Source of the DNA: Bdellovibrionota bacterium
GTDB taxonomy: Bacteria > Bdellovibrionota_C > UBA2361 > OMII01
Length of the DNA stretch: 10,623 nt
Reading direction: 5' to 3'
NCBI GenBank assembly: GCA_044356215.1
Contig: JBIKWQ010000093.1
Location: 1-10,623, forward strand
The notes under the pieces were generated by a model. The model saw only the letters and a list, made by a program, of their open reading frames with translations. It made no database searches and was not told where the DNA came from. The translations under genes and the position numbers were made by a program. Shown here piece after piece: positions 1-10,623 of this stretch (positions within the stretch are counted from its first letter, which is position 1; every line of letters starts with the position of its first letter).

Positions 1-76
1 GCAGAGGACACAGAGAAAACCCCATAATTGCCCATAAAATGGCCGTTCTCTGTGTCCTCTGCGTCCTCTGTGGTGA
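1..76. repeat. Palindromic repeat with 9-bp periodic arms (REP-like), cut by the left window edge
   Basis: 1-17 GCAGAGGACACAGAGAA is the exact reverse complement of 46-62 TTCTCTGTGTCCTCTGC. The right arm is three 9-mers (TTCTCTGTG, TCCTCTGCG, TCCTCTGTG at 46-72) followed by GTGA. The loop carries CCCATAA twice (21-27, 31-37). Confidence 0.85.
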
Positions 77-143
77 TAAAGAACTGCGATGCCCTAGTTG
101 GGGGGTAGATTCGTCGGATTTTCCGTGAGATAATTAGGTTTCT

Positions 144-1004
144 ATGAGCATTATTTCGCACGGGTACTCTGGTGATAAAGAATCAAGTGGATCAGATCCG
201 CGAATCACTAAACTTAAAAATGAGCTAAGAGAGTTTGATTTAGGGCGCTTCCTACTCGACAATCGGGGGCTTAATGGGCGATGGACCTCCTATGTGTTGA
301 TGTATCCGGATAGAGGTCGGGCGTCTAATCTGAGTAGCGATGGATCTCAACTTAAGGAGTTGGAGTCATGGTTGCTTAACAGGTGTCCGATATTCGCGGC
401 GACTCAAGAGAGATTCCGAATCTTTCGTGAATTGACTCAGCCGTTGCTTCGCTCAGATATGAAAATAGCCTCGCTTCCTAGTGGGCTGATGGATGATTTG
501 CTAACACTTGATTACTCCTCTGTCGATAACGTAGAGGTAACGGCCATAGATCTTGATCCAGATAGCTTAGAGGCCGCCAGCATTAATCATAAGCAGCTAA
601 ATACTCCTGTAGTCGTTAAGTTTGAGCAGCGTGATGCGTGGGCTCTCGATTCTTTTGAACGTTGGGATCTGATAACCAGTAATGGGCTAAACATCTATGT
701 AGCTGAGGATGAGAGTTGCACGGATTTATATCGCAGTATCTCTAAATCCCTTAAACCAGGCGGAATGTTTGTGATGAGTTTTATCACTCCGCCAGATCGG
801 TGGGAGCCAAAATCACCAGAGGACCTTGCACAGCAGCGTTTTCTTTTTACTAACGTGATGCCGGTCAGGTGGAGCTGTGTACGAGATGAGAGTAAAACTA
901 GACAGCAGCTTGACGCCGCCGGTTTTGAGGTCGTTTCAATTAGGTATGATTCACAGCGGATGTTTCCGGCAGTTCTAGCTCGTAAGCTTTCCTCGAGAAG
1001 TTAG
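144..1004 (+). CDS. Class I SAM-dependent methyltransferase, substrate unknown
   Basis: 286 aa. Motif-I-like IASLPSGLMDD, acidic motif II VTAIDLD, then RDAW, WDLITSNG and SLKPGGMFV in the order expected for a Rossmann-fold methyltransferase. Confidence 0.85.
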   Translation: MSIISHGYSGDKESSGSDPRITKLKNELREFDLGRFLLDNRGLNGRWTSYVLMYPDRGRASNLSSDGSQLKELESWLLNRCPIFAATQERFRIFRELTQPLLRSDMKIASLPSGLMDDLLTLDYSSVDNVEVTAIDLDPDSLEAASINHKQLNTPVVVKFEQRDAWALDSFERWDLITSNGLNIYVAEDESCTDLYRSISKSLKPGGMFVMSFITPPDRWEPKSPEDLAQQRFLFTNVMPVRWSCVRDESKTRQQLDAAGFEVVSIRYDSQRMFPAVLARKLSSRS

Positions 1005-1229
1005 CTCTGCCGCAAGGCACTGCTTATATGCCTCTTGGGGGCTTAACAAGCCTTCTTTGGGGGAGGGAATACCCTCTTCAGCTCTCTAATGTTTAGCCGA
1101 ACGCAAGGCTTCGATTTTAAACGCGCGTTAGCTCACGCGTATGCGGTACCTTCGTTTGTTCTGAAATAGCTCCTATCGCCGAGAAAAAGTCCCTCGACGG
1201 GCATATGATCTAAATGCAATACTTTTGGT

Positions 1230-1469
1230 GTGAATCCAACTATTTACTCTGAAGGTCCCTACCGTTTCTTCTTCTTCTCAAGAGAGGAACCCAGACCTCA
1301 TGTACATGTGATATCATCAAACGGAGAGGCGAAGTTTTGGCTTGAGCCCGTCGTCGCTCTAGCGGACTCGGAGGGGTTAAAGCCCCTAGAGCTTCGGCGA
1401 ATTCAAAAAATTGTGGAGCGTCAAAGTGAAAAGTTCCGGAAAGCTTGGAAAGATTTTTTTGGGGTGTGA
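1230..1469 (+). CDS. DUF4160 family protein (putative HicA-like toxin of a DUF4160/DUF2442 pair)
   Basis: 79 aa from a GTG start. MNPTIY..GPYRFFFFSREEPRPHVHV..GEAKFWL..AWKDFFG matches the DUF4160 pattern, and the gene overlaps a downstream DUF2442 gene. Confidence 0.88.
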   Translation: MNPTIYSEGPYRFFFFSREEPRPHVHVISSNGEAKFWLEPVVALADSEGLKPLELRRIQKIVERQSEKFRKAWKDFFGV

Positions 1470-1743
1470 GGTAGCTAACATCTCGCCATTTGGGGTGTGG
1501 GTGCTAGTTAGCGGTCGCGAGTACTTTCTCGACCACAAAAAGTTTCCTTGGTTCAAGGGGGCCGCGGTTGAAGATGTTCTGAACGTAGAGAGCCCTAGTA
1601 CAGGACATCTTAGGTGGCCAGCTCTTGATGTCGATTTGCACCTAGAGTCTATAAGCTCGCCGGAGCAGTTTCCTTTGGTGGCTCGTACCAACGGGCATAA
1701 CAAGAAGGCGGTGCGGAGGACCAAACGTCCCCGCACGCATTGA
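1426..1743 (+). CDS. DUF2442 family protein (putative antitoxin partner of DUF4160)
   Basis: EVANISPFGVWVL..FPWF..HLRWPALDVDL..SI..PEQFPL is the DUF2442 pattern. Start reassigned from the ORF-track TTG at 1411 to GTG 1426, which has GGAG (1415-1418) 7 nt upstream. The last ~16 codons run through the attC-like site. Confidence 0.85.
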   Translation: MKSSGKLGKIFLGCEVANISPFGVWVLVSGREYFLDHKKFPWFKGAAVEDVLNVESPSTGHLRWPALDVDLHLESISSPEQFPLVARTNGHNKKAVRRTKRPRTH

Positions 1744-1751
1744 CGTTATAC
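1695..1751 (+). mobile_element. attC-like recombination site (57 bp)
   Basis: R'' GCATAAC 1695-1701; L'' GCGGTGCG 1708-1715 pairs with L' CGCACGC 1732-1738 with one extra base; GAGGAC/GTCCC gives a second extra base; R' GTTATAC 1745-1751. The left spacer is 6 nt rather than the usual 5. Confidence 0.75.
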
Positions 1752-1853
1752 GCTTTTCTTTTCGCGCCTTCTCCAGTAGCCAGGTCGTCTTTTAGCATGA
1801 GCGATTGCTACAATCTCAATTGTATCTATTTTTATTCGAAATATTACAGAATA
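1746..1853 (-). pseudogene. C-terminal remnant of a RelE/ParE-family toxin
   Basis: Minus strand 1853->1746 translates as YSVIFRIKIDTIEIVAIAHAKRRPGYWRRREKKSV*, the characteristic C-terminus (..YSVIYR..IVAVAH.KRRPGYW) of toxins paired with TIGR02574-type antitoxins. The N-terminal part is absent. Not listed in the ORF track. Confidence 0.85.
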
Positions 1854-2052
1854 GAGAAGACCACGTAATTCCAACTGTATTACCAGAGTCAAGGTCCTCA
1901 ATTCTAGCTTTTAACTCTACTTCCCAAGCCGCTTCTACATCCCCAGTTTCTTCTTCCTCAAGACTCGCGATAAGCGACGCGGCCAATCCTGCTCTTTCAA
2001 CTTCCGTGAGGGCGAGTGCCTGATTTAATACTTTCTTTACATCTTCTGTCAT
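1816..2052 (-). CDS. Addiction-module antitoxin (TIGR02574 / Unstab_antitox-like) with an altered C-terminus
   Basis: MTEDVKKVLNQALALTEVERAGLAASLIASL..VEAAWEVELKARIEDLDSGNTVGITW matches the family pattern (AL.L...ERA.LA..L..SL..AW..E...R....SG....I.W). The tail after ITW is toxin DNA read out of frame. ATG 2052 is preferred over TTG 2082. Confidence 0.85.
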   Translation of the reverse strand: MTEDVKKVLNQALALTEVERAGLAASLIASLEEEETGDVEAAWEVELKARIEDLDSGNTVGITWSSLFCNISNKNRYN

Positions 2053-2073
2053 GTAAGTAGTGTACTGCATTGT

Positions 2074-2167
2074 GTATAGCAAATAAATGCAAAAGATTTC
2101 GCGCCATTAACTACTTAGTTTGACTAAACATCCCTAAGGCGCCAGCCTTTCGATTTGGACGATCTTT
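2074..2167 (+). mobile_element. Degenerate attC-like site (94 bp)
   Basis: The left arm GTATAGC-AAATA-AATGCAAA-AGATT aligns with GTATAAC-ACGGA-AATGCAGC-AGATT of the 2745 site. The right arm CT-TTCGATT-TGGAC-G aligns with CT-GCTGATT-TAGGC-G. Inner GCGCC/GGCGC pair (2101-2105/2138-2142). R'' has AAC->AGC and R' reads GATCTTT. Confidence 0.55.
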
Positions 2168-2281
2168 ATCGCCGCATTATCAGCGTTTAGCTGAGCTGTA
2201 TAGCTCAAAAGGTCGCTACTATTTTTAAAAACTAGCACGATAGGCACGCCGAATGCTTCTGCCTCTGGCGACTCTTCCAGC

Positions 2282-2542
2282 CTATAGATATACATCTCTA
2301 CGATGGCGCACTCGTTGAATCTCGATTTCTCGCCTCTGCTTGTTCACGATATAAATTACTCGATAGTCTCCAACTCGAATCCGAAAGGTATGTTCGGAGC
2401 CAATCAACTTCTTAGACGAAGCAGGAAACGGATTCTCTTCCAGAGCTTCTACGGCTTTAAGCACCCGGCGGACTGCTAATCGATCTAAACGCTTAAGGTC
2501 CTTGGCTACTGAGCCTTTAAAGGTGACCTTATAAGAGGCCAT
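2282..2542 (-). CDS. relE: Type II TA toxin, RelE/StbE family mRNA interferase
   Basis: 86 aa, basic. YKVTF..SVAKDLKRL..NPFP..KKL.G..FRIRVGDYRVIY..I.RVRHRRDVY is the canonical RelE pattern. Overlaps the upstream antitoxin by 14 bp. Confidence 0.92.
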   Translation of the reverse strand: MASYKVTFKGSVAKDLKRLDRLAVRRVLKAVEALEENPFPASSKKLIGSEHTFRIRVGDYRVIYIVNKQRREIEIQRVRHRRDVYL

Positions 2543-2723
2543 CTTTTTTAAGCCTCTTTTTCATTTGCTCGAATGATACTGTCTTGTCCTTTCGACGCTC
2601 GGCAACGGCAACGAGGTCCTGAATGTCCTCAAGCATCTCCTCATAGGTCTCAACAGGGAGGATAACTGATTTCTTGCGACCCTTCTCGTCGGTGACATAT
2701 TGAACTGCAGATGCTCTTTTCAT
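2529..2723 (-). CDS. Cognate RelB-like antitoxin
   Basis: 64 aa from ATG 2723 (TTG 2735 also possible). QYVTDEKGRKKSVILPVETYEEMLEDIQDL..AERR....SFEQMK pattern, immediately upstream of and overlapping relE. Confidence 0.85.
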   Translation of the reverse strand: MKRASAVQYVTDEKGRKKSVILPVETYEEMLEDIQDLVAVAERRKDKTVSFEQMKKRLKKDGLL

Positions 2724-2743
2724 GGTGCGTTCCAACTAAAAGG

Positions 2744-2752
2744 AGTATAACA
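2744..2752 (-). promoter_or_regulatory. Candidate extended -10 promoter (TGnTATACT) for the inverted antitoxin-relE operon, overlapping the attC R'' box
   Basis: Minus strand 2752->2744 reads TGTTATACT, 20 nt upstream of ATG 2723. No convincing -35 element. Confidence 0.5.
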
Positions 2753-2836
2753 CGGAAATGCAGCAGATTGCCGCAGGGCTCTCAAAAGTATAGGAGCTTT
2801 GAATAGGGGCGGCAACTGCTGATTTAGGCGTTATAC
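2745..2836 (+). mobile_element. Canonical attC site (92 bp)
   Basis: R'' GTATAAC 2745-2751, 5-nt spacer, L'' AATGCAGC 2757-2764 (one extra G) pairing with L' GCTGATT 2818-2824, AGATTGCCGC/GCGGCAACT stem with a second extra base (A), 5-nt spacer TAGGC, and R' GTTATAC 2830-2836 exactly complementary to R''. The next ATG follows 13 nt later. Confidence 0.9.
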
Positions 2837-2849
2837 GAGAAGAGAGTCT

Positions 2850-3398
2850 ATGAATATACGACCCGCCGAACCGCGTGAGCTGGCCTTGTGCGTCGCCCTT
2901 AACAATCGCTGCATTCTTGGCGAATCTGCTGACACTAACACTGGCTTCCTGCTTTCACCTCTTTCCATCGAAGAATTGGCTGCGTTCAGCAATGACGGAG
3001 TACTGAGAGTCGCCGTCCTTGAAGGGGACGTGGTTGGTTTCATACTAGCTTTTAAGAGGGAGAGTAAGTTCTTTACTAACCTATTGTCCCTGATGGCGAA
3101 CGTAGAATGGGTTGATCCCTCTATTCCGTCTATTAGTAAGCTTATGTATGTATACAAAAAAGCTGTCGAGCCGTCCTTTCGTCGTCGTGGAATAGCATCT
3201 TGTATGTATAAAGCACTTATTAGTGAGTTCAGCGAGTTTGGATTACTGGGCGCTACTGTGGAGAAGCCCGTATCGAATGAACCATCAAGGCTATTCCGAG
3301 AGCGTCATCAGTACCGCAGAGTCGGGACGTTTCATGCTGCGGAGTTTGAAGGTATTCAAGGGTATCAAAGTGGCATCTATTTCAAGAGCAGCGTATAA
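2850..3398 (+). CDS. GNAT family N-acetyltransferase
   Basis: 182 aa. N-terminal IRPA, beta strand VAVLEGDVVGFI, acetyl-CoA motif A AVEPSFRRRGIA and motif B SNEPSRLF..YRRVG. It has promoterless cassette geometry between two attC-like sites. Confidence 0.88.
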   Translation: MNIRPAEPRELALCVALNNRCILGESADTNTGFLLSPLSIEELAAFSNDGVLRVAVLEGDVVGFILAFKRESKFFTNLLSLMANVEWVDPSIPSISKLMYVYKKAVEPSFRRRGIASCMYKALISEFSEFGLLGATVEKPVSNEPSRLFRERHQYRRVGTFHAAEFEGIQGYQSGIYFKSSV

Positions 3399-3451
3399 TC
3401 AAAGACGCAAGCGCCCGGATGACGAGTTCCGGGTTATCGTTAGTGTTAGTC
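3393..3451 (+). mobile_element. Degenerate attC-like site (59 bp)
   Basis: R''-like GTATAAT contains the GNAT stop codon, and CGTATAA is complementary to TTATACG at 2831-2837. Inner stem CCCGGA/TCCGGG (3414-3419/3428-3433). R'-like GTTAGTC 3445-3451, with the next ATG 16 nt later. The L boxes pair poorly. Confidence 0.55.
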
Positions 3452-3467
3452 CTGATCGTAGAGACTT

Positions 3468-4295
3468 ATGTTAGTTAAATCCTCAAACCAAAAACATTCT
3501 ATTAGCCTTAGATTTTCAAACTCTGCTGATCTGATCGGAGAGATCCTCGCGGGAGAAGTTGTTTCGGAGATGCTCAAGCTCACGCCAGGGACTCTTTATT
3601 TCATGGGATTGCCGACAGGGAGGACTCCTATTCCTTTTCTTAAGTCATTCGTTTCCCAAATTTCTTCTTTGGATTCCGGGTTGCAAAAAGACCTCATTCG
3701 TAGCTTGAGCATTGTCGTGATGGATGATCTTGTTGACGCTAGCGGCAAGAACATTTCGCCGGATATTGAGTTCGGTGCTTTTGGCTTTATGAGAAAGCAT
3801 CTCCTCGAGCCACTCCGCCAATTTATTGATTGCAAAGACTTAGAAGAACGTATTTTTTTCCCGAAGCCAGGCGAGGTCGGAAATCTCAAGAAATTCGTGC
3901 TTGAAAACGGTGGAATGCCTTTTCAGATGATTGCCACCGATCCATTTGAGGGACATGTGGCGCAGAACTTTCCGAATGCGCCATTCCGCAAGACGGAGGC
4001 GGAGAAACAGGTCCCTCTGAGCCACGAATTTATTCGCCATAATCCGTGGGCCGAGCAGTATTCTGGAGTAACGTTTGATCTTGTCGATTTTGCAGAGATG
4101 GTCGCGGCACATCCATGCGGGCGAATAGTTGTCGTTATATCCGGTGCCACCAAACGCGATATTCTGGCCAAATTTTTTCAGAACCGGTCTGCTTCTGAAG
4201 ACTTTCCTTTATCGTATTTCTGGAGTTGTGAATGCCCGACAGAGCTGCACACTGATCAAACAGATGTGCTTGCCGATATTACCGAGCTTTCATGA
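3468..4295 (+). CDS. Divergent glucosamine-6-phosphate deaminase / 6-phosphogluconolactonase (NagB-fold) family protein
   Basis: 275 aa. MGLPTGRTP phosphate loop, VVMDD (NagB NMDEY), EGHVAQNFP (NagB DGHIAFNEP; 6PGL DGHTASLFP), VISGATK and FPLSY occur in the family order. Confidence 0.75.
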   Translation: MLVKSSNQKHSISLRFSNSADLIGEILAGEVVSEMLKLTPGTLYFMGLPTGRTPIPFLKSFVSQISSLDSGLQKDLIRSLSIVVMDDLVDASGKNISPDIEFGAFGFMRKHLLEPLRQFIDCKDLEERIFFPKPGEVGNLKKFVLENGGMPFQMIATDPFEGHVAQNFPNAPFRKTEAEKQVPLSHEFIRHNPWAEQYSGVTFDLVDFAEMVAAHPCGRIVVVISGATKRDILAKFFQNRSASEDFPLSYFWSCECPTELHTDQTDVLADITELS

Positions 4296-4299
4296 CAGG

Positions 4300-4319
4300 G
4301 CATAACAATCCGATCGAAA
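4300..4319 (+). mobile_element. Possible left half of a truncated attC site
   Basis: GCATAAC starts 4 nt after the NagB-like stop codon, followed by the typical spacer AATCC. GGGCATAACAA (4298-4308) is identical to 1693-1703. No matching L' or R' was found downstream. Confidence 0.4.
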
Positions 4320-4391
4320 CGCTCGCTTTAGTATTCGGACCAACTATTTAATTAACTTGTGAATTTCCAAAAACCAACCGATAACTAAACC

Positions 4392-6038
4392 ATGACTATC
4401 TGCCCCATAACAGACAGCGCTCAAATTAAGCGAACACCCTCGCGCATAGATAGCATTACACGAGCCAAAAACGAGATTTTTGATCTAATAGTAATTGGCG
4501 GAGGGATCCACGGTGTGTGCCTAGCTAAGATGGCTGCGCAGTCAGGGATCTCTGTCTTGCTGCTTGAGCAGAGTGACTTCGCGAGTGGGACTTCAAGTCG
4601 GAGTTCTAAGATGGCGCACGGAGGTTTGCGTTATTTAGAGATGTTTGATTTCGAGCAGGTCTATGAGGGGATCCGTTCACGTGAGGATCTCTTTAAGCGC
4701 ATGCCAAACTTGGCGCGGCCGGAGCGATTCCTTATCCCGATTAAGCGTGGTGATTACTGGTTTAGATTTAAACTGGGCGTTGGATTGACGATCTATGATC
4801 TGATGTCTCGCGGTAGCGCTCGCAGACATAAGTTGATTCCTGGAGTCTCGGAAGCTTTCGGAACTCACGCGGATCTCGCGGGATGCTTTGAGTATACCGA
4901 TGGGTTGATGAGTGATAGTAGGTTAGTTTTTGAATTCCTGACCGCCGCACGACAGCTAGGTGCGGTTACTTTAAATTATGCCCAAGTAGAATCGTGTAAG
5001 CTTGATAATTCAGATCTTTCAGAGGTTGTCTGGAGCGACCAAACACGAAACGAGAAGCATGTATCGCGTTGTAAGTTAGTCGTAAATTGCGCTGGACCTT
5101 GGGCGACAGAGATTAAAAGAGATCGAGGGCAGGGCTCGGATGTTAAGCTCCGTTATAGCAGGGGGTCACATTTAGTTTTCTCAACCCCCTGGAGATATCC
5201 ATCTTTATTTCTCCCACTTGAGGAGAAGGGCCGTTATTACTTCGTCTGGCCGCATCAAAGTGGAGGTACTCTAGTTGGAACAACTGAGCGTGAGGTGAGC
5301 GAACTAGACCTCGATCCACAACCTTCTCCGGATGAAGTAGAGGAGATACTAAAGAGGCTTGAGCGAGATCTCCCTCACGCTGGTCTAAATAGGGCTACTT
5401 TGAGTTACGGCTTCGCAGGAATAAGATCTCTTCCGGCGCGACCTGGAAGGCTAAATAGGGCAGGGGTTAGTCGTCTCTCTAGAAAGCATATCTGGGAACT
5501 AAAAGATGGGGTCTTAAGCCTCTATGGAGGAAAGTATACTACCTTTGCATGGACAGCGAGTGAGGGGTTAAGGCTCGTATTTAAGCGATTTAAGCGCGCG
5601 CTAAGTGAGCTTCCGGATCCGTATGATTGTCTTCCTAGTGTAGTTTCAGAGAGTGAGCGAGCGCGGCTAGTAAGCATGGTTAAATCAAAGATAGCTGTAT
5701 CTGATGACGCGCTAAATCGAGCCACTAGTCGCTTGGGTAACCAGGTGCTTATTTATTTAGATCGCCCTGAAGCGTGGAGTGAGATCTCAGAAGGGGTCTT
5801 AAATCTTGAAGCGATTCACGCCATCGAAGTAGAGCAAGCGGTGACGATAGAAGATCTGTTGCGAAGAAGGCTAGAGTTAGAGGCGACACCGTCACACGGA
5901 ATAGCGGCGCTAGATGCGCTAGAGCGGGAGTTAGGCAAAGTAGTCGAGCCCTCAATAGTTTCTATGCAGCGGGGTGAGTATTTGGGCAGGATTGAGGAGT
6001 TGATGCGGGTGTTGAAACCTACCTCCTCCCACCCTTAG
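4392..6038 (+). CDS. glpD: FAD-dependent glycerol-3-phosphate dehydrogenase/oxidase
   Basis: 548 aa. FAD motif DLIVIGGGIHG, signature DFASGTSSRSSKMAHGGLRYLE, VVNCAGPW, RGSHLV, GTTE, AGIRSL, SRKH, GGKYTT and C-terminal EQAVTIEDLLRRRL. Confidence 0.93.
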   Translation: MTICPITDSAQIKRTPSRIDSITRAKNEIFDLIVIGGGIHGVCLAKMAAQSGISVLLLEQSDFASGTSSRSSKMAHGGLRYLEMFDFEQVYEGIRSREDLFKRMPNLARPERFLIPIKRGDYWFRFKLGVGLTIYDLMSRGSARRHKLIPGVSEAFGTHADLAGCFEYTDGLMSDSRLVFEFLTAARQLGAVTLNYAQVESCKLDNSDLSEVVWSDQTRNEKHVSRCKLVVNCAGPWATEIKRDRGQGSDVKLRYSRGSHLVFSTPWRYPSLFLPLEEKGRYYFVWPHQSGGTLVGTTEREVSELDLDPQPSPDEVEEILKRLERDLPHAGLNRATLSYGFAGIRSLPARPGRLNRAGVSRLSRKHIWELKDGVLSLYGGKYTTFAWTASEGLRLVFKRFKRALSELPDPYDCLPSVVSESERARLVSMVKSKIAVSDDALNRATSRLGNQVLIYLDRPEAWSEISEGVLNLEAIHAIEVEQAVTIEDLLRRRLELEATPSHGIAALDALERELGKVVEPSIVSMQRGEYLGRIEELMRVLKPTSSHP

Positions 6039-7548
6039 AAGTAAGCGATCCAAATACCCCTCTAGTAATTGATCTACCGATCTGGCTGCCGATTGAGCGG
6101 GCGACACTTACCATCATCGCCTCAAGTGGGCTCTGTCTCGTTCTCTTGCCAGAGCCACTATTAGCCGCTCCCGATCCGAATATACCCGAGAGGATAGAGC
6201 CGTTTGATTCGTTCGTTACTTCACTTGATCCTTTAGGCGTGTCTTTACTCGCGGTAGCCTGACTCGCATCGTTCATGCGCTTTGTTAAGATCTCATAAGC
6301 CGATTCGCGATCGATACTTTTCTCGTAGGTTCCGTAAACGGTCGACGAGGTTATAACAGCCTTCCTCTCCTCTGGAGTGATAGCGCCTAGGCGACTCTGT
6401 GGTGGAACAACAAGAGCGCGCTTGGCTATGCATGGAGATCCCTTCTCATCAAGAAGAGAAACCACCGCCTCGCCTATCGCCAACTCGCCGATCACTTCCT
6501 GTAGATTCATCGACCCGTCACTTCTAAATGTCTCAGCGGTAGCTTTAATCGCCTTCTGATCCTTAGCTGTAAAGGCGCGCAGGGCGTGTTGAACTCTGTT
6601 GCCCAATTGCGTTAACACAGTATCGGCGATATCTAATGGGCTCTGAGAAACGAAATAAACTCCGACACCTTTCGATCTAATCAGTCTAACCACCTGCTCA
6701 ATTCTCTCAATAAGCGCCTTTGGAGCCTCGTTAAAGAGTAGGTGAGCCTCATCAAAGAAGAATACAAGCTTTGGCTTAGCTAGGTCGCCCTCTTCTGGAA
6801 GTTTCTCGAATAGCTCAGAGAGGAGCCAGAGAAGTAGGGTGGAGTAAACCAGCGGGGAATTTAGTAATTTCTCAGCGCTAAGGATGTTGATCACCCCACG
6901 CCCCGACGAGTCTGTTTGTAGGAGGTCATCTATGGTCAGAGCTGGCTCTCCAAAGAAAACCTCTCCGCCACTATCTTTTAGCGCGAGTAGCGATCGCTGA
7001 ATCGCGCCTATGCTCGCCGCAGAGATGTTTCCGTATTCAAGGGTAAATTTCTGCGCGTTCTCTCCAACATAAACTAACATCGCTTGGAGATCCTTTAGAT
7101 CTAAGAGCAACATCCCAGCATCATCAGCCGCTTTAAACACTATATTAAGCACGCCCGCTTGAGTGTCGTTTAGGTTTAATAGTCTGGACAGAAGGACTGG
7201 ACCGATCTCCGAGATCGTCGTGCGCATCGGATGGCCATTTACTCCGAGCACATCCCATAAAACAACCGGATAAGCTTGCGGGGCCCAATCCTCTATTCCT
7301 AAGGTATTTAAGCGCTCCGATAACTTATCTGATTTCACTCCCGGTTGGCTTAGCCCTGCCAAGTCTCCCTTAACATCCGCCATAAAAACCGGGACCCCCA
7401 TTCTACTGAATCCTTCAGCGAGGACCCGTAGAGTTACGGTTTTGCCGGTGCCTGTGGCTCCCGCTATCAAACCGTGACGGTTAGCCATACTAGGAAGTAG
7501 TTCCAAGATTTCAGAGCCAGATCGGGCGACAGTAAGTGGAGCGCTCAT
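6019..7548 (-). CDS. yjgR: DUF853 / YjgR family HerA-like P-loop ATPase
   Basis: 509 aa. ANRHGLIAGATGTGKTVTL (Walker A), ADVKGDL, KPKLVFFFDEAHLLF (Walker B), IRSKGVGVYF, QLGNRVQHALRAFT and DRESAYEIL. It has a 20-bp convergent overlap with glpD. Confidence 0.93.
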   Translation of the reverse strand: MSAPLTVARSGSEILELLPSMANRHGLIAGATGTGKTVTLRVLAEGFSRMGVPVFMADVKGDLAGLSQPGVKSDKLSERLNTLGIEDWAPQAYPVVLWDVLGVNGHPMRTTISEIGPVLLSRLLNLNDTQAGVLNIVFKAADDAGMLLLDLKDLQAMLVYVGENAQKFTLEYGNISAASIGAIQRSLLALKDSGGEVFFGEPALTIDDLLQTDSSGRGVINILSAEKLLNSPLVYSTLLLWLLSELFEKLPEEGDLAKPKLVFFFDEAHLLFNEAPKALIERIEQVVRLIRSKGVGVYFVSQSPLDIADTVLTQLGNRVQHALRAFTAKDQKAIKATAETFRSDGSMNLQEVIGELAIGEAVVSLLDEKGSPCIAKRALVVPPQSRLGAITPEERKAVITSSTVYGTYEKSIDRESAYEILTKRMNDASQATASKDTPKGSSEVTNESNGSILSGIFGSGAANSGSGKRTRQSPLEAMMVSVARSIGSQIGRSITRGVFGSLTSKGGRR

Positions 7549-7822
7549 GGTTGTTTATCCCCTGATAATTTAGCTATTTAAGCTTAAGATATGACGCGAA
7601 TCATAGAGAGCTTATTACACGTGAACTATAGTGTAAACCGACTTGTGCCAGGCTCTTTTCCCACGAGTTTGTGGCAACTTTCAATTAAATAGTCTCGATT
7701 CTCAATTTAAAGGCGTTAACTGGCGTGAATCAGAGAAGCCGTCAGAAAACTTCTATTTAAGCACCGAATGAGCCACCTTGTGGTTTAATGTATTACTAAC
7801 AGATAGCGAGGTAGTTTGATTT

Positions 7823-8929
7823 ATGGCGATTGAGTTAGGCGCGCTGAATGATAATAAAGCGATCATAGAAGCGGACCATTTAAGCGATATTATATCTAGT
7901 TACCGTGTCTTGGCCTTCAAATTTGATCAAGATGGTCGATGTGTCTACGCGCATAGTAAAGCGTGCGAAGTTCTTGGGATTTCAGCGAATGAGATTGTTG
8001 GCCGCGGAATATCTGAGATGCTTCCGCCACCCGATGAGAACTTTCTGAGCTACACGGCGGCCCTAGGTCAGGTCTTCGGTAGGGGGGAGGTTGCTGACTG
8101 CAGATTCACTCTGCAGAGAAATGGGGTTAAGAGAGAGTACCTGATAGTTTTTACTCAAGCGCCGCATCAGGAAGCAGAGACGCGGATCGCCTATGGATTA
8201 GCTTTCGAGATAAGCAAGATCTTAAGAGATCTTCACGCGAGCGATCGCAGGAAGGATCAATTTCTGGCGATCGTGGCGCACGAGATGCGTAACCCTATTT
8301 CATCGCTAGCTGCAGGGCTGCGCCTGCTTGAGCACTCGTCTACTCAGATGCCGTTAGCTGAAGTTCGAAGGTTAATGGGAAGCCAGATAGCTAACTTAAG
8401 CCGTTTAGTTGATGACATTCTCGACGTGTCTCACATAAGAAACGGGCGCCTGAGCCTTAAGTTAGAGTTAATTGACGCGCATGAGGTGGTCAAGGCAGCG
8501 CTCGATACCTGCAGGGAGGCGATAGAGCGTGGTAATCACGAGCTTCGAGTTGATTACGCTAGTGAGAAGATTCCGATGTTGGCGGATAGCCAACGTTTGT
8601 CGCAGGTCTTGGTCAATCTTCTCGACAATGCAGCCAAGTACACTCCGCCTGGAGGAAAGATAACCCTAAAGGTAAGCGAGGAGAGTGGTGATGTGTTTTT
8701 CTCCGTGTCAGACAATGGGATCGGCGTATCTCCTGAATATGCGCACAAGATATTTGAGCTCTTCTCTCAGCTTGAACCTGGATTAGATAAGCGTGGAGGG
8801 GGCGTGGGTATAGGACTCTACTTAGTTAAGATGATTGTAGAGGCACATAACGGCAGGATTCAGCTTGTCAGCGATGGAGCGGGCAAGGGGAGCGCGTTTG
8901 TAGTGAGGATTCCTGTGGTGAATGCTTGA
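7823..8929 (+). CDS. Cytoplasmic PAS-domain sensor histidine kinase (HisKA + HATPase_c), no receiver domain
   Basis: 368 aa. PAS-like FDQDGRCVYAHSKACEVLGISANEIVGR, H box AHEMRNP, N box NLLDNAAKYT, G1 DNGIG, F box IFELF and G2 GVGIGL. No obvious transmembrane segment. Confidence 0.92.
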   Translation: MAIELGALNDNKAIIEADHLSDIISSYRVLAFKFDQDGRCVYAHSKACEVLGISANEIVGRGISEMLPPPDENFLSYTAALGQVFGRGEVADCRFTLQRNGVKREYLIVFTQAPHQEAETRIAYGLAFEISKILRDLHASDRRKDQFLAIVAHEMRNPISSLAAGLRLLEHSSTQMPLAEVRRLMGSQIANLSRLVDDILDVSHIRNGRLSLKLELIDAHEVVKAALDTCREAIERGNHELRVDYASEKIPMLADSQRLSQVLVNLLDNAAKYTPPGGKITLKVSEESGDVFFSVSDNGIGVSPEYAHKIFELFSQLEPGLDKRGGGVGIGLYLVKMIVEAHNGRIQLVSDGAGKGSAFVVRIPVVNA

Positions 8930-9026
8930 CCAAAGTGTGGCTAGTGGAGACGTATAATAAACCGCCAGGATTGATAACTGAAAAGTCAGGAGGAGAGCCA
9001 GCGTAGCCGGCTACAGTCGTTACCGG

Positions 9027-9054
9027 GATTAAGCTCGCGTAAGCGAGCTTAATC
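9027..9054. terminator. Perfect 12-bp hairpin between the convergent kinase and rpsN genes; probable terminator or 3'-end stabiliser
   Basis: GATTAAGCTCGC-GTAA-GCGAGCTTAATC lies 8 nt beyond the rpsN stop. There is no long U-tract on either side. Confidence 0.6.
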
Positions 9055-9062
9055 ATCGCTTA

Positions 9063-9368
9063 CTACCAGCTAGACTTAGTAACACCAGGGATAAGACCCT
9101 TGTGAGCCATCTCGCGGAAAACGATACGCGAGATCATAAACTTTTTGTAAATACCACGAGGACGTCCAGATAGCTGGCAACGATTGCGGACACGCTCCTT
9201 AGCTCCGTTACGTGGAAGAGATTGAAGCTTCATGCGAGCCTTGTAACGCTCCTCATCAGAGATCTTTGGGTCGAGCGCTTTTTCCTTTAGCTCTTGGCGC
9301 TTAGCGTATTGGTTAGCTGCCATTCTGATGCGCTTTTCGTTGCGGAGAGTTGTGCTTTTCTTTGCCAT
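9063..9368 (-). CDS. rpsN: 30S ribosomal protein S14, long zinc-independent (C-) type
   Basis: 101 aa [54 protein letters not shown]. It has only one Cys, so no CxxC..CxxC zinc ribbon. Confidence 0.98.
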
Positions 9369-9458
9369 ATCTGTACTTAACTTCTAACTGCTGCCTATCG
9401 GCTAGCTTGTTAACAATTTCCTTTCGATCTGTCTCTTTTAGAATTTTTCAGAACGAGG

Positions 9459-9492
9459 TGCGACATCATATCACAGTTTCTGTTTAAGTCCA
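9459..9492 (-). promoter_or_regulatory. Candidate sigma70 promoter for rpsN with an overlapping imperfect palindrome
   Basis: Minus strand TGGACT (9492-9487), a 16-nt spacer ending in TGA, then TATGAT (9470-9465). An 8-1-8 inverted repeat TGTGATAT-G-ATGTCGCA (9475-9459, 6 of 8 positions matching) covers the -10 box. Confidence 0.5.
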
Positions 9493-9569
9493 TGATCTGA
9501 GAAGCAAGTTTAAAGATCCGGCCGTAAGTTGCTAACATATTGAATATAGGCGGTATTTAGCGCTGCTTA

Positions 9570-9657
9570 GCGAGGCGAGGCAAAACCTCGCCTTCGCGAG
9601 TTTTTGCTCGGTAACGGCGCTTATCGCGCCGTTTAGGGTCTGAAATCGCGATGATTT
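9570..9657. other. Cluster of tandem hairpins downstream of nfo
   Basis: AGGCGAGG/CCTCGCCT (9573-9593), CGAG/CTCG (9597-9610), AACGGCGC/GCGCCGTT (9613-9633) and AAATC/GATTT (9643-9657). Confidence 0.6.
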
Positions 9658-9668
9658 GCCGCTCTTAC

Positions 9669-10523
9669 TTAGCCCCTCTTTTCACTAAAACCGATTAGCT
9701 TATCAACCTCACTGCGTGCGCCATCAAGGCTCTCGAGGGCTGGGGTCTCCAAGATAAAGGGTATCTCAACTAACTTTGGATGGTTAAAGAACCGCTCGAG
9801 AGCCGCGGCGCCGATCAAGCCATCTCCGATATTTTCGTGACGGTCCTTCTTGCTAGCGCACGGAGTTTTGCTGTCGTTTAAGTGGATCGACCAAACCTTA
9901 TCTATAGTCATAGCGCTCTCAATATTCGAGATCACTTGCTCTTGATCCTCCACTAAGTTGTACCCGCTGGCCCACATATGCTGCGTATCAAGACCGAATC
10001 CAACCAACTCTTTGCGCTCTAGTTGTGAATAGATTAACGCGAGCTCCTCAAGCCGATCCCCGATGATACTCCCTGAACCAGCCGCAACCTCCATAATTAA
10101 TCGCGAGTTCTTAGGGGCGCGCTCAAGCACCCAATTAAGCCCAGAGACAACACGGTCGTATCCTTCCTCATCGCTAGGTTGGTCCTTCATACTTCCGACA
10201 TGAAAGATCACACCAGCGCCATCAATTCGCGCGCTGAGATCTAAATAGTTCAGCAGAGATGTTTTAGCCATGTGAAACTTCTGCGGATCCGGAGTCGCCA
10301 TATTAATTAGATAGATAGCGTGGAAGAAAACCTTCTCAAGACACGAGCCCTGGCGAAGTTTATTAAACGCGTCCTCAGCTCCTTCAGCGAATGGTTGTGA
10401 GTTCCATCTCTGTGGTGGAGATGGATGAATCTGTATCGTGTTAATATTGAGTTCGATAGCGGCCTTAGCCGCGTTGACCAGACCGCCCGCGCAAGAAACG
10501 TGGGCACCAAAGTAGCGCTTCAT
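9669..10523 (-). CDS. nfo: Endonuclease IV (AP endonuclease family 2)
   Basis: GAHVS..GG, FHAIYLINMA, IFHVGS, MEVAAG.G..IG, GLDTQHMWASGY, IHLNDSK, DRHENIGDGLIG and PFILETP provide the Zn-ligand motifs. Start reassigned from TTG 10556 to ATG 10523 (MKRYFGAHVS), 284 aa. Confidence 0.97.
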   Translation of the reverse strand: MKRYFGAHVSCAGGLVNAAKAAIELNINTIQIHPSPPQRWNSQPFAEGAEDAFNKLRQGSCLEKVFFHAIYLINMATPDPQKFHMAKTSLLNYLDLSARIDGAGVIFHVGSMKDQPSDEEGYDRVVSGLNWVLERAPKNSRLIMEVAAGSGSIIGDRLEELALIYSQLERKELVGFGLDTQHMWASGYNLVEDQEQVISNIESAMTIDKVWSIHLNDSKTPCASKKDRHENIGDGLIGAAALERFFNHPKLVEIPFILETPALESLDGARSEVDKLIGFSEKRG

Positions 10524-10623
10524 AAATCCTACACTTCCCCCAGGGAAGGCCGGCAAAACCCCTCCCTACTGCGAAAGCGGATCTTGAGCTGCTCTTCGAG
10601 TTTTCGAGATGGGAAAAAATCCT

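Follow-up and report, generated by a model that had tools for sequence, protein, structure and literature searches.

An integrase-less integron cassette array with two intact toxin-antitoxin pairs and signs of erosion in a Bdellovibrionota genome

Results

The DNA analyzed here (the window; 10,623 nt, GenBank JBIKWQ010000093.1, forward strand) is the entire contig C112 of a Bdellovibrionota bacterium whose assembly (GCA_044356215.1) comprises 3.24 Mb in 131 contigs, and the public runs richest in DNA of this genome are lake and other freshwater metagenomes. An integron-type cassette array of ∼4.3 kb occupies approximately positions 97-4349 and is closed on both sides, lying between an arnT-like and a glpD-like gene (Table 1). 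An earlier reading of the sequence letters by a model (the original prediction) had described a cassette array at 1230-4340 that lacked an integrase and was rich in toxin-antitoxin (TA) modules. The array was found there, but its left edge lies farther out: because two relatives carry the methyltransferase gene of 144-1004 as a cassette, the array begins to the left of 1230, and the tauE relic at 1021-1158 belongs to it as well. The methyltransferase homologues (∼65% identical; genomes G051 and G046) are followed by an attC site and preceded by an attI-like site or an attC. Three TA modules are indeed present, two of them intact and the third having lost most of its toxin.

Table 1 Features of the cassette array, its flanks, and the integron integrase of the host genome. 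R1 is the attC covariance model described in the text; positions are those of the window unless a contig is named.
Position	Strand	Feature	Evidence
1..96	.	MITE-like repeat, right part of 163 bp, at end of arnT-like gene	
144..1004	+	SAM-dependent methyltransferase gene, without recognizable attC here	Pfam
1021..1158	+	tauE/safE relic, cargo of tauE-dhiTA composite	90.6% to intact G023 cassette
1230..1469	+	dhiT-type toxin (DUF4160), intact	Pfam; dN << dS
1462..1743	+	dhiA-type antitoxin (DUF2442), intact; frame covers most of attC	Pfam
1695..1751	+	attC of dhiTA cassette, intact, bottom strand folds	fold, template scan, R1
1746..1853	-	ParE-family toxin C-terminal fragment, N-terminal part missing	
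1816..2082	-	addiction-module antitoxin (PF09720/TIGR02574), likely start 2052	
2074..2167	+	attC, inactivated	full-length alignment to intact attC (G009, contig C9)
2161..2253	+	two SGNH/GDSL hydrolase cargo relics, 2161-2198 and 2204-∼2253	
2282..2542	-	RelE/ParE-family toxin, intact, inverted within cassette	Pfam, NCBIfam TIGR02385
2529..2735	-	RelB-like antitoxin, intact	Pfam/NCBIfam; dN/dS
2745..2836	+	attC of relBE cassette, intact	fold, template scan, R1
2850..3398	+	GNAT acetyltransferase cassette gene	Pfam; homologues in 3/60 relatives
3393..3451	+	attC, eroded	homologous to attC in G010 and contigs C92/C115
3468..4295	+	NagB-like sugar-phosphate isomerase/deaminase cassette gene	
4300..4349	+	attC, eroded, last; right edge of array	weak alignment to C13 attC
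4392..6038	+	glpD-like gene, chromosomal right flank	Pfam/NCBIfam; synteny with G004
C13:23679-25067	-	IntI	N-terminal DUF5710 domain (E 2.8e-18) and long C-terminal tail

The two attC sites at 1695-1751 and 2745-2836 form bottom-strand hairpins in which the R''/R' and L''/L' boxes are paired and two bases are extrahelical. Both are among the six top sites of a genome-wide template scan that none of 300 shuffled windows passed. We scored them with our own covariance model (R1, not the model of IntegronFinder), built from 19 short attC sites of relatives, none homologous to those in the window; an unstructured alignment of 35 attC sites was unusable. The R1 structure has 87% paired cells and 15 of its 20 pairs vary on both sides, statistics that are partly circular as the training sites were picked by a pairing rule. 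On the bottom strand the two sites scored 45.9 and 45.1 bits (E 3.6e-9 and 5.6e-9), compared with 8.4 bits for the next best match in the window and 8 bits on the top strand. With two model matches 1 kb apart on one strand, the array has the at least two clustered attC sites that define an attC-site cluster without an integron integrase (CALIN). The coordinates in the original prediction were right for both sites, as were the pairing and the two extra bases; the RYYYAAC consensus it had named did not hold strictly, the R'' boxes being GCATAAC and GTATAAC. Neither true site was found by scanning with strict RYYYAAC, and a relaxed pattern was used instead.

For each of the three eroded sites that had been predicted at 2074, 3393, and 4300, an intact attC in this genome or in a relative gives an alignment whose score none of 500 shuffles reached; 4300-4349 is the weakest relic (alignment score 11). 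R1 does not match any of them; long or eroded sites are under-scored because the model was built on short ones. At 2074 the AAC has changed to AGC, and R' after the crossover G is replaced by SGNH-gene sequence (G|ATC). The 3393 site has lost the AAC of R'' and part of the left arm, and its GTATAAT looks like the product of an 8-bp deletion that took this AAC and spacer. At 4300 the R'' box GCATAAC is retained and the GTT of R' is absent. A further candidate at 1041-1133, located within the tauE relic, scored no more than 7.8 bits and was discarded. A repeat search of the window found no attC family, since the sites are heterogeneous, and an Rfam scan of the window gave nothing meaningful.

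Two cassettes retain a 5' core complementary to their own R'', as predicted: 1745 with 2074 (one change) and 2830 with 3392, where the core of the GNAT cassette, GTTATACG, complements CGTAT. The further pairing of 1745 with 2745 failed, as the relBE cassette's own 5' core has been deleted. Comparison with relatives also revealed cassette-wise gain and loss, so that the outcome named as contrary to the prediction, no attC model match together with a conserved gene order, did not occur. The region 97-4400 matches DNA in 26 of 61 genomes (its own included), long matches to congeners stop at G|TT with different neighbors beyond, and the dhiTA unit is present in 17 of 34 congeners. One of these (G023) carries a complete integron in the order intI, attI, GNAT, attC, tauE-dhiT-dhiA, attC.

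The flanks are chromosomal. To the right, 4392-10556 holds core genes (glpD-like, herA-like, histidine kinase, rpsN, and nfo) in a synteny that is also present in the relative G004. The contig breaks at its left end because a miniature inverted-repeat transposable element (MITE)-like repeat is inserted there, the 96-nt part of which has 94 copies genome-wide. Target duplications of 9 bp flank 18 of 24 internal copies of the full 163-bp repeat. Of the 40 contig ends that run into the element, only that of C116 has the duplication of the window copy (97-105), and C116 (10 kb) terminates in an arnT-like glycosyltransferase gene. A MITE-free allele, with the arnT end joined directly to base 97, is seen on a contig of run X13. 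In relatives the arnT-like gene either adjoins glpD (G006) or is separated from it by one gene (G004). The original prediction had offered a CALIN or the distal end of a sedentary integron abutting glpD, with intI and attI expected to the left. The CALIN part stands; intI and attI are not to the left, because the unique duplication and the X13 contig link that end to the arnT-like gene. No tyrosine recombinase is present on C112 or C116, that is, in 6 kb of core genes to the right and 10 kb to the left.

At one relative's locus (G023:C11:6083-9001) intI is followed directly by glpD, and the array reads away from glpD, opposite to the window. Loss of intI from such a locus was considered as an origin and rejected on account of this orientation; among the genomes compared there, intI and glpD lie side by side only in G023.

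A genome-wide search returned a single IntI above the family cut-off (436 bits versus 265), intact-looking and located on C13 rather than upstream of the array. The genome has eight tyrosine-recombinase matches, none on C116. Contig C13 ends one cassette past intI in a multi-copy element. The window does not contain adjacent intI and attI as a complete integron does, and the attI-side region of C13 had no match in the window. The DUF5710 head of this IntI is shared only by G006 among 24 IntI frames compared, and our literature search found no paper with both DUF5710 and an integron integrase. Scored with R1, 150 of 706 candidates from the whole genome yielded 14 matches, spread over 8 contigs. 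More integrase-less attC clusters were observed on C9, C36, C49, C55, C87, C92, C115, and C130, several of them TA-rich (C115), and degenerate copies of the intI attI-side region lie on C9 and C92.

Two adjacent, intact type II TA pairs of matching families are present, dhiTA and relBE. Their genes have dN (nonsynonymous) values of 0.005-0.064 versus dS (synonymous) values of 0.14-1.7 in nine pairwise comparisons. The third pair, PF09720 with ParE, lacks a full-length toxin: ∼30 C-terminal residues align, with 47% identity over 30 amino acids to the toxin behind a homologous antitoxin in G029. That toxin matches ParE_toxin weakly, and the window fragment itself had no Pfam match. The tail of the accompanying antitoxin continues into the toxin DNA out of frame. 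The NagB-like protein has an Atlas score of 0.92 to Glucosamine_iso clusters and a weak match to NCBIfam PRK09762; it has no homologue in 60 relatives and no match in a PDB search. A promoter scan of the window gave 6 matches versus 5.7 in shuffles, no excess, so TA promoters were not located. The GTG start of dhiT lies 6-7 nt after a TA-rich hexamer with all cargo types and has no ribosome-binding site (1205-1232 and homologues). This arrangement suggests a leaderless dhiT transcript, the hexamer being unflagged by the promoter scan.

Comparison with the genes of relatives shows each intact TA pair to be the 3' tail of a three-gene cassette; the cargo gene (tauE for dhiTA, an SGNH hydrolase for relBE) has been deleted here. 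The SGNH relics are 92% and 84% identical to the intact cassette of G050, which is also present in G006 and G022. Five different cargo genes precede the TA-attC tails in this genome and its relatives. The dhiTA-attC tail follows tauE (G023, G002, and the window), a transpeptidase-fold gene (PF00905; G009, G010, G043, G007, and G045), and a NUDIX gene (G048, G019, G044, G003, G001, G021, and G047); the relBE-attC tail follows SGNH (G050, G006, G022, and the window) and an NCS2 permease (G043 and G007). The transpeptidase-fold gene, which from its motifs we take to be putatively class D beta-lactamase-like, is coupled to dhiTA in freshwater congeners, e.g., G009 (L125:7456-8193), L164, L165, and L166. 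The dhiTA pair of G018 and G024 has ordinary genes around it, and no attC was detected there. R1 detected no attC between cargo and TA genes in the 27 loci searched.

The 5' core of the composites is the exact complement of the R'' of the tail in 11 of 14 cases and one base off in the other 3. These 14 have both ends readable; G002, G003, G021, G045, G047, and G006:C109 were left out on account of contig ends or insertions. Both ends have changed together in G007 (ATTATTC with GAATAAC), and a GTTATTC start is common to G045 and G006. Among 81 distinct cassette starts, one of the two cores accounts for 14 and the other for 12, and the chance of three extra joins matching is ∼0.4%, a rough product that treats kin as independent. 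Stand-alone SGNH cassettes already have the GTTATAC/GTATAAC pair. The tails, by sequence comparison, also recombine: the window tail groups with that of G009 in a tree (97/96 support, most other forks being weak), and G009 and G010 share cargo that is 94% identical with tails that are only 86% identical.

Compared with the intact cassettes of relatives, the array has lost the methyltransferase attC, the 5' part of tauE and a further internal piece of it, and, from the SGNH cassette, its first 475 bp plus 103 bp more; the 5' core of relBE went along with most of the SGNH gene. The third TA module kept its antitoxin. No attC site is still intact apart from the two that follow the intact TA pairs. 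In three of four runs the tauE relic carries an extra 91-bp deletion. At 2161 the crossover G of an attC is the exact point of junction with an ATC that lies within SGNH, and a contig from run X2 has intact SGNH sequence up to this point. The junction reads GAT and fits the GWT consensus, a motif that occurs 30 times in the 674 nt of SGNH. IntI likely made this deletion, by recombining the crossover G of the attC with a GWT secondary site within SGNH.

Discussion

The element at 97-4349 belongs to a known class, the CALINs. We consider it well supported that it is a stranded CALIN in the course of losing DNA, with the remains of six cassettes, in which the two intact TA pairs were likely kept because their loss would poison the cell. 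The cassettes would have been assembled by the IntI of the host. Deletions have removed tauE, SGNH, the ParE toxin, and all attC sites except those of the intact TA pairs. The sole attC x attC excision that would still be possible in the array (1695 x 2745) would remove relBE. Under the addiction model of TA cassettes, in which excision is reported to kill cells (PMC13108822), loss of relBE is predicted to be harmful, and this excision should be counter-selected so that the array would be locked. The methyltransferase, GNAT, and NagB-like genes would then be immobilized passengers. The recombination activity of the two intact sites is itself a prediction.

Several observations weigh against this reading. 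The toxicity and addictive nature of dhiTA and relBE, on which it builds, are predicted. With three TA modules and a few deletions, the sample for TA-sparing erosion is small, and the GNAT, NagB-like, and methyltransferase reading frames are likewise intact with no TA pair of their own. The dN/dS values cover the whole history of the genes, mostly before their arrival in this array. As to that arrival, neither end of the array revealed a clear G|WT integration scar; the right end reads GGAC|CAAC, and the left start is not identifiable. At 2161, two of three SGNH relatives have A rather than G at the junction base, and slippage at the base of the hairpin could yield an identical joint.

Neutral decay, in which the TA pairs survived because they are small and the deletions few, would dispense with addiction, and we regard it as unlikely, if deserving of serious weight. 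It would fit with the intactness of the three non-TA reading frames, with the loss of one TA module by deletion of its toxin, and with the persistence of attC-less dhiTA among housekeeping genes in G018 and G024. The positions of the deletions argue otherwise: they end no more than ∼70 bp upstream of dhiT and ∼80 bp past the relE stop, with most of both cargoes gone. Moreover, intact attC sites are found only behind intact TA pairs, and the damaged module is one that lost its toxin and kept its antitoxin.

The array could instead be an active reservoir from which the C13 IntI excises cassettes in trans for re-insertion at attI, a possibility raised for CALINs (PMC4889954) and compatible with an intact IntI and two intact attC sites. 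We judge it improbable: no cassette-excision joint was seen in any of the four runs (contigs drop rare variants), the intact attC sites have no intact upstream partner except through the excision that removes relBE, and the genome holds no second copy of the cassette genes of the array. That assembly breaks alone separate the array from the sedentary C13 integron, of which it would be the distal end, has very little left in its favor beyond C13 stopping in a multi-copy element and the window opening at a repeat, and it is largely refuted by the target duplication shared solely with C116, the X13 contig, and the absence of tyrosine recombinases from C116.

As a CALIN, the array is ordinary. CALINs are described with degenerate attC sites as a step to fixation, and half have an IntI elsewhere in the genome (PMC4889954); the window shares with them a minimum of two attC sites, the lack of a neighboring intI, a small number of cassettes, an IntI elsewhere, and degenerate attC sites, and differs in nothing of kind. 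The value of the present case lies in the well-resolved end of the life of a cassette array, in which flanks, deleted cargoes, and ongoing, strain-level erosion are all traceable, and the erosion pattern fits the addiction model. TA modules are common in arrays (bioRxiv 10.1101/2024.07.02.601686). The TA cassettes of the sedentary chromosomal integrons of Vibrio, as presented in the accessible text, are likewise type II modules with their own attC and a predicted penalty for both excision and deletion (PMC13108822); they are treated there as single units, whereas those of the window are tails of three-gene cassettes behind cargo. The DUF4160/DUF2442 families correspond to the dhiTA pair of Dickeya dadantii (PMC8198452), in which the toxin gene also precedes and overlaps the antitoxin gene; the match is at the family level and the window toxin is putative. 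Our literature search found no link between the dhiTA family and integrons. Insertion of cassettes at secondary genomic (attG) sites by IntI follows a GWT consensus (bioRxiv 10.1101/2022.09.11.507474), with which the crossover G and AT at 2161 agree. In contrast to the attG sites described there, the 2161 event would be an excision-type deletion, the hotspot CRGM is not at positions 6-9, and the ends of the array itself show no GWT scar.

The shared TA-attC tail behind five cargoes, with matched core ends, bears on the question of how cassettes come together and persist. Reviews describe cassettes that contain one, two, or no open reading frames (PMC8618304), and fused cassettes arise through attC loss, as in blaOXA-10/aadA1 and blaGES-1/aacA4 (PMC8876359, section 2.4.4). 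The composites resemble these fusions in that two units move as one with a single downstream attC; they differ in that cargo and TA have no detected attC relic between them, one tail recurs behind unrelated cargoes, and the 5' core fits the R'' of the tail. We tentatively raise, as a possible though on balance doubtful explanation, that in this genus a TA pair and the attC that follows it form a portable addiction tail, with grafting behind cargo genes of unrelated kinds. If so, such cassettes would be self-addictive, with both core ends kept complementary across 1-2 kb and even co-varying in one lineage (GTTATTC with GAATAAC), and grafting would be a recurrent route to build or protect cassettes and a handle on how they are made. 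We found no paper on one TA-attC tail common to several cargo genes in a literature search that covered few subscription papers and excluded supplements. Composites of cargo and TA genes with shared tails merit a broader survey.

Additional observations in the host genome

The 163-bp MITE-like element has short terminal inverted repeats and an internal hairpin and is polymorphic between strains; its target duplications scaffold nine contig pairs. A longer element with the same terminus, which may be an autonomous partner, ends C92, C29, C53, C61, C107, and C129. The right end of the window (10540-10623) is a second dispersed repeat with dozens of copies. Another multi-copy element, a candidate IS91-like element, adjoins R' cores of attC sites (GTT|GAAC...) and breaks the assembly at the ends of C13, C9, C55, and C109; it is also present behind 2832 in run X4, and a variant occurs on C36, C49, and C72. 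Within a cassette array on C115 (4022-5473), we observed what we take to be a group II intron reverse-transcriptase-like open reading frame inside a KilA-N/ORF6N-like gene.

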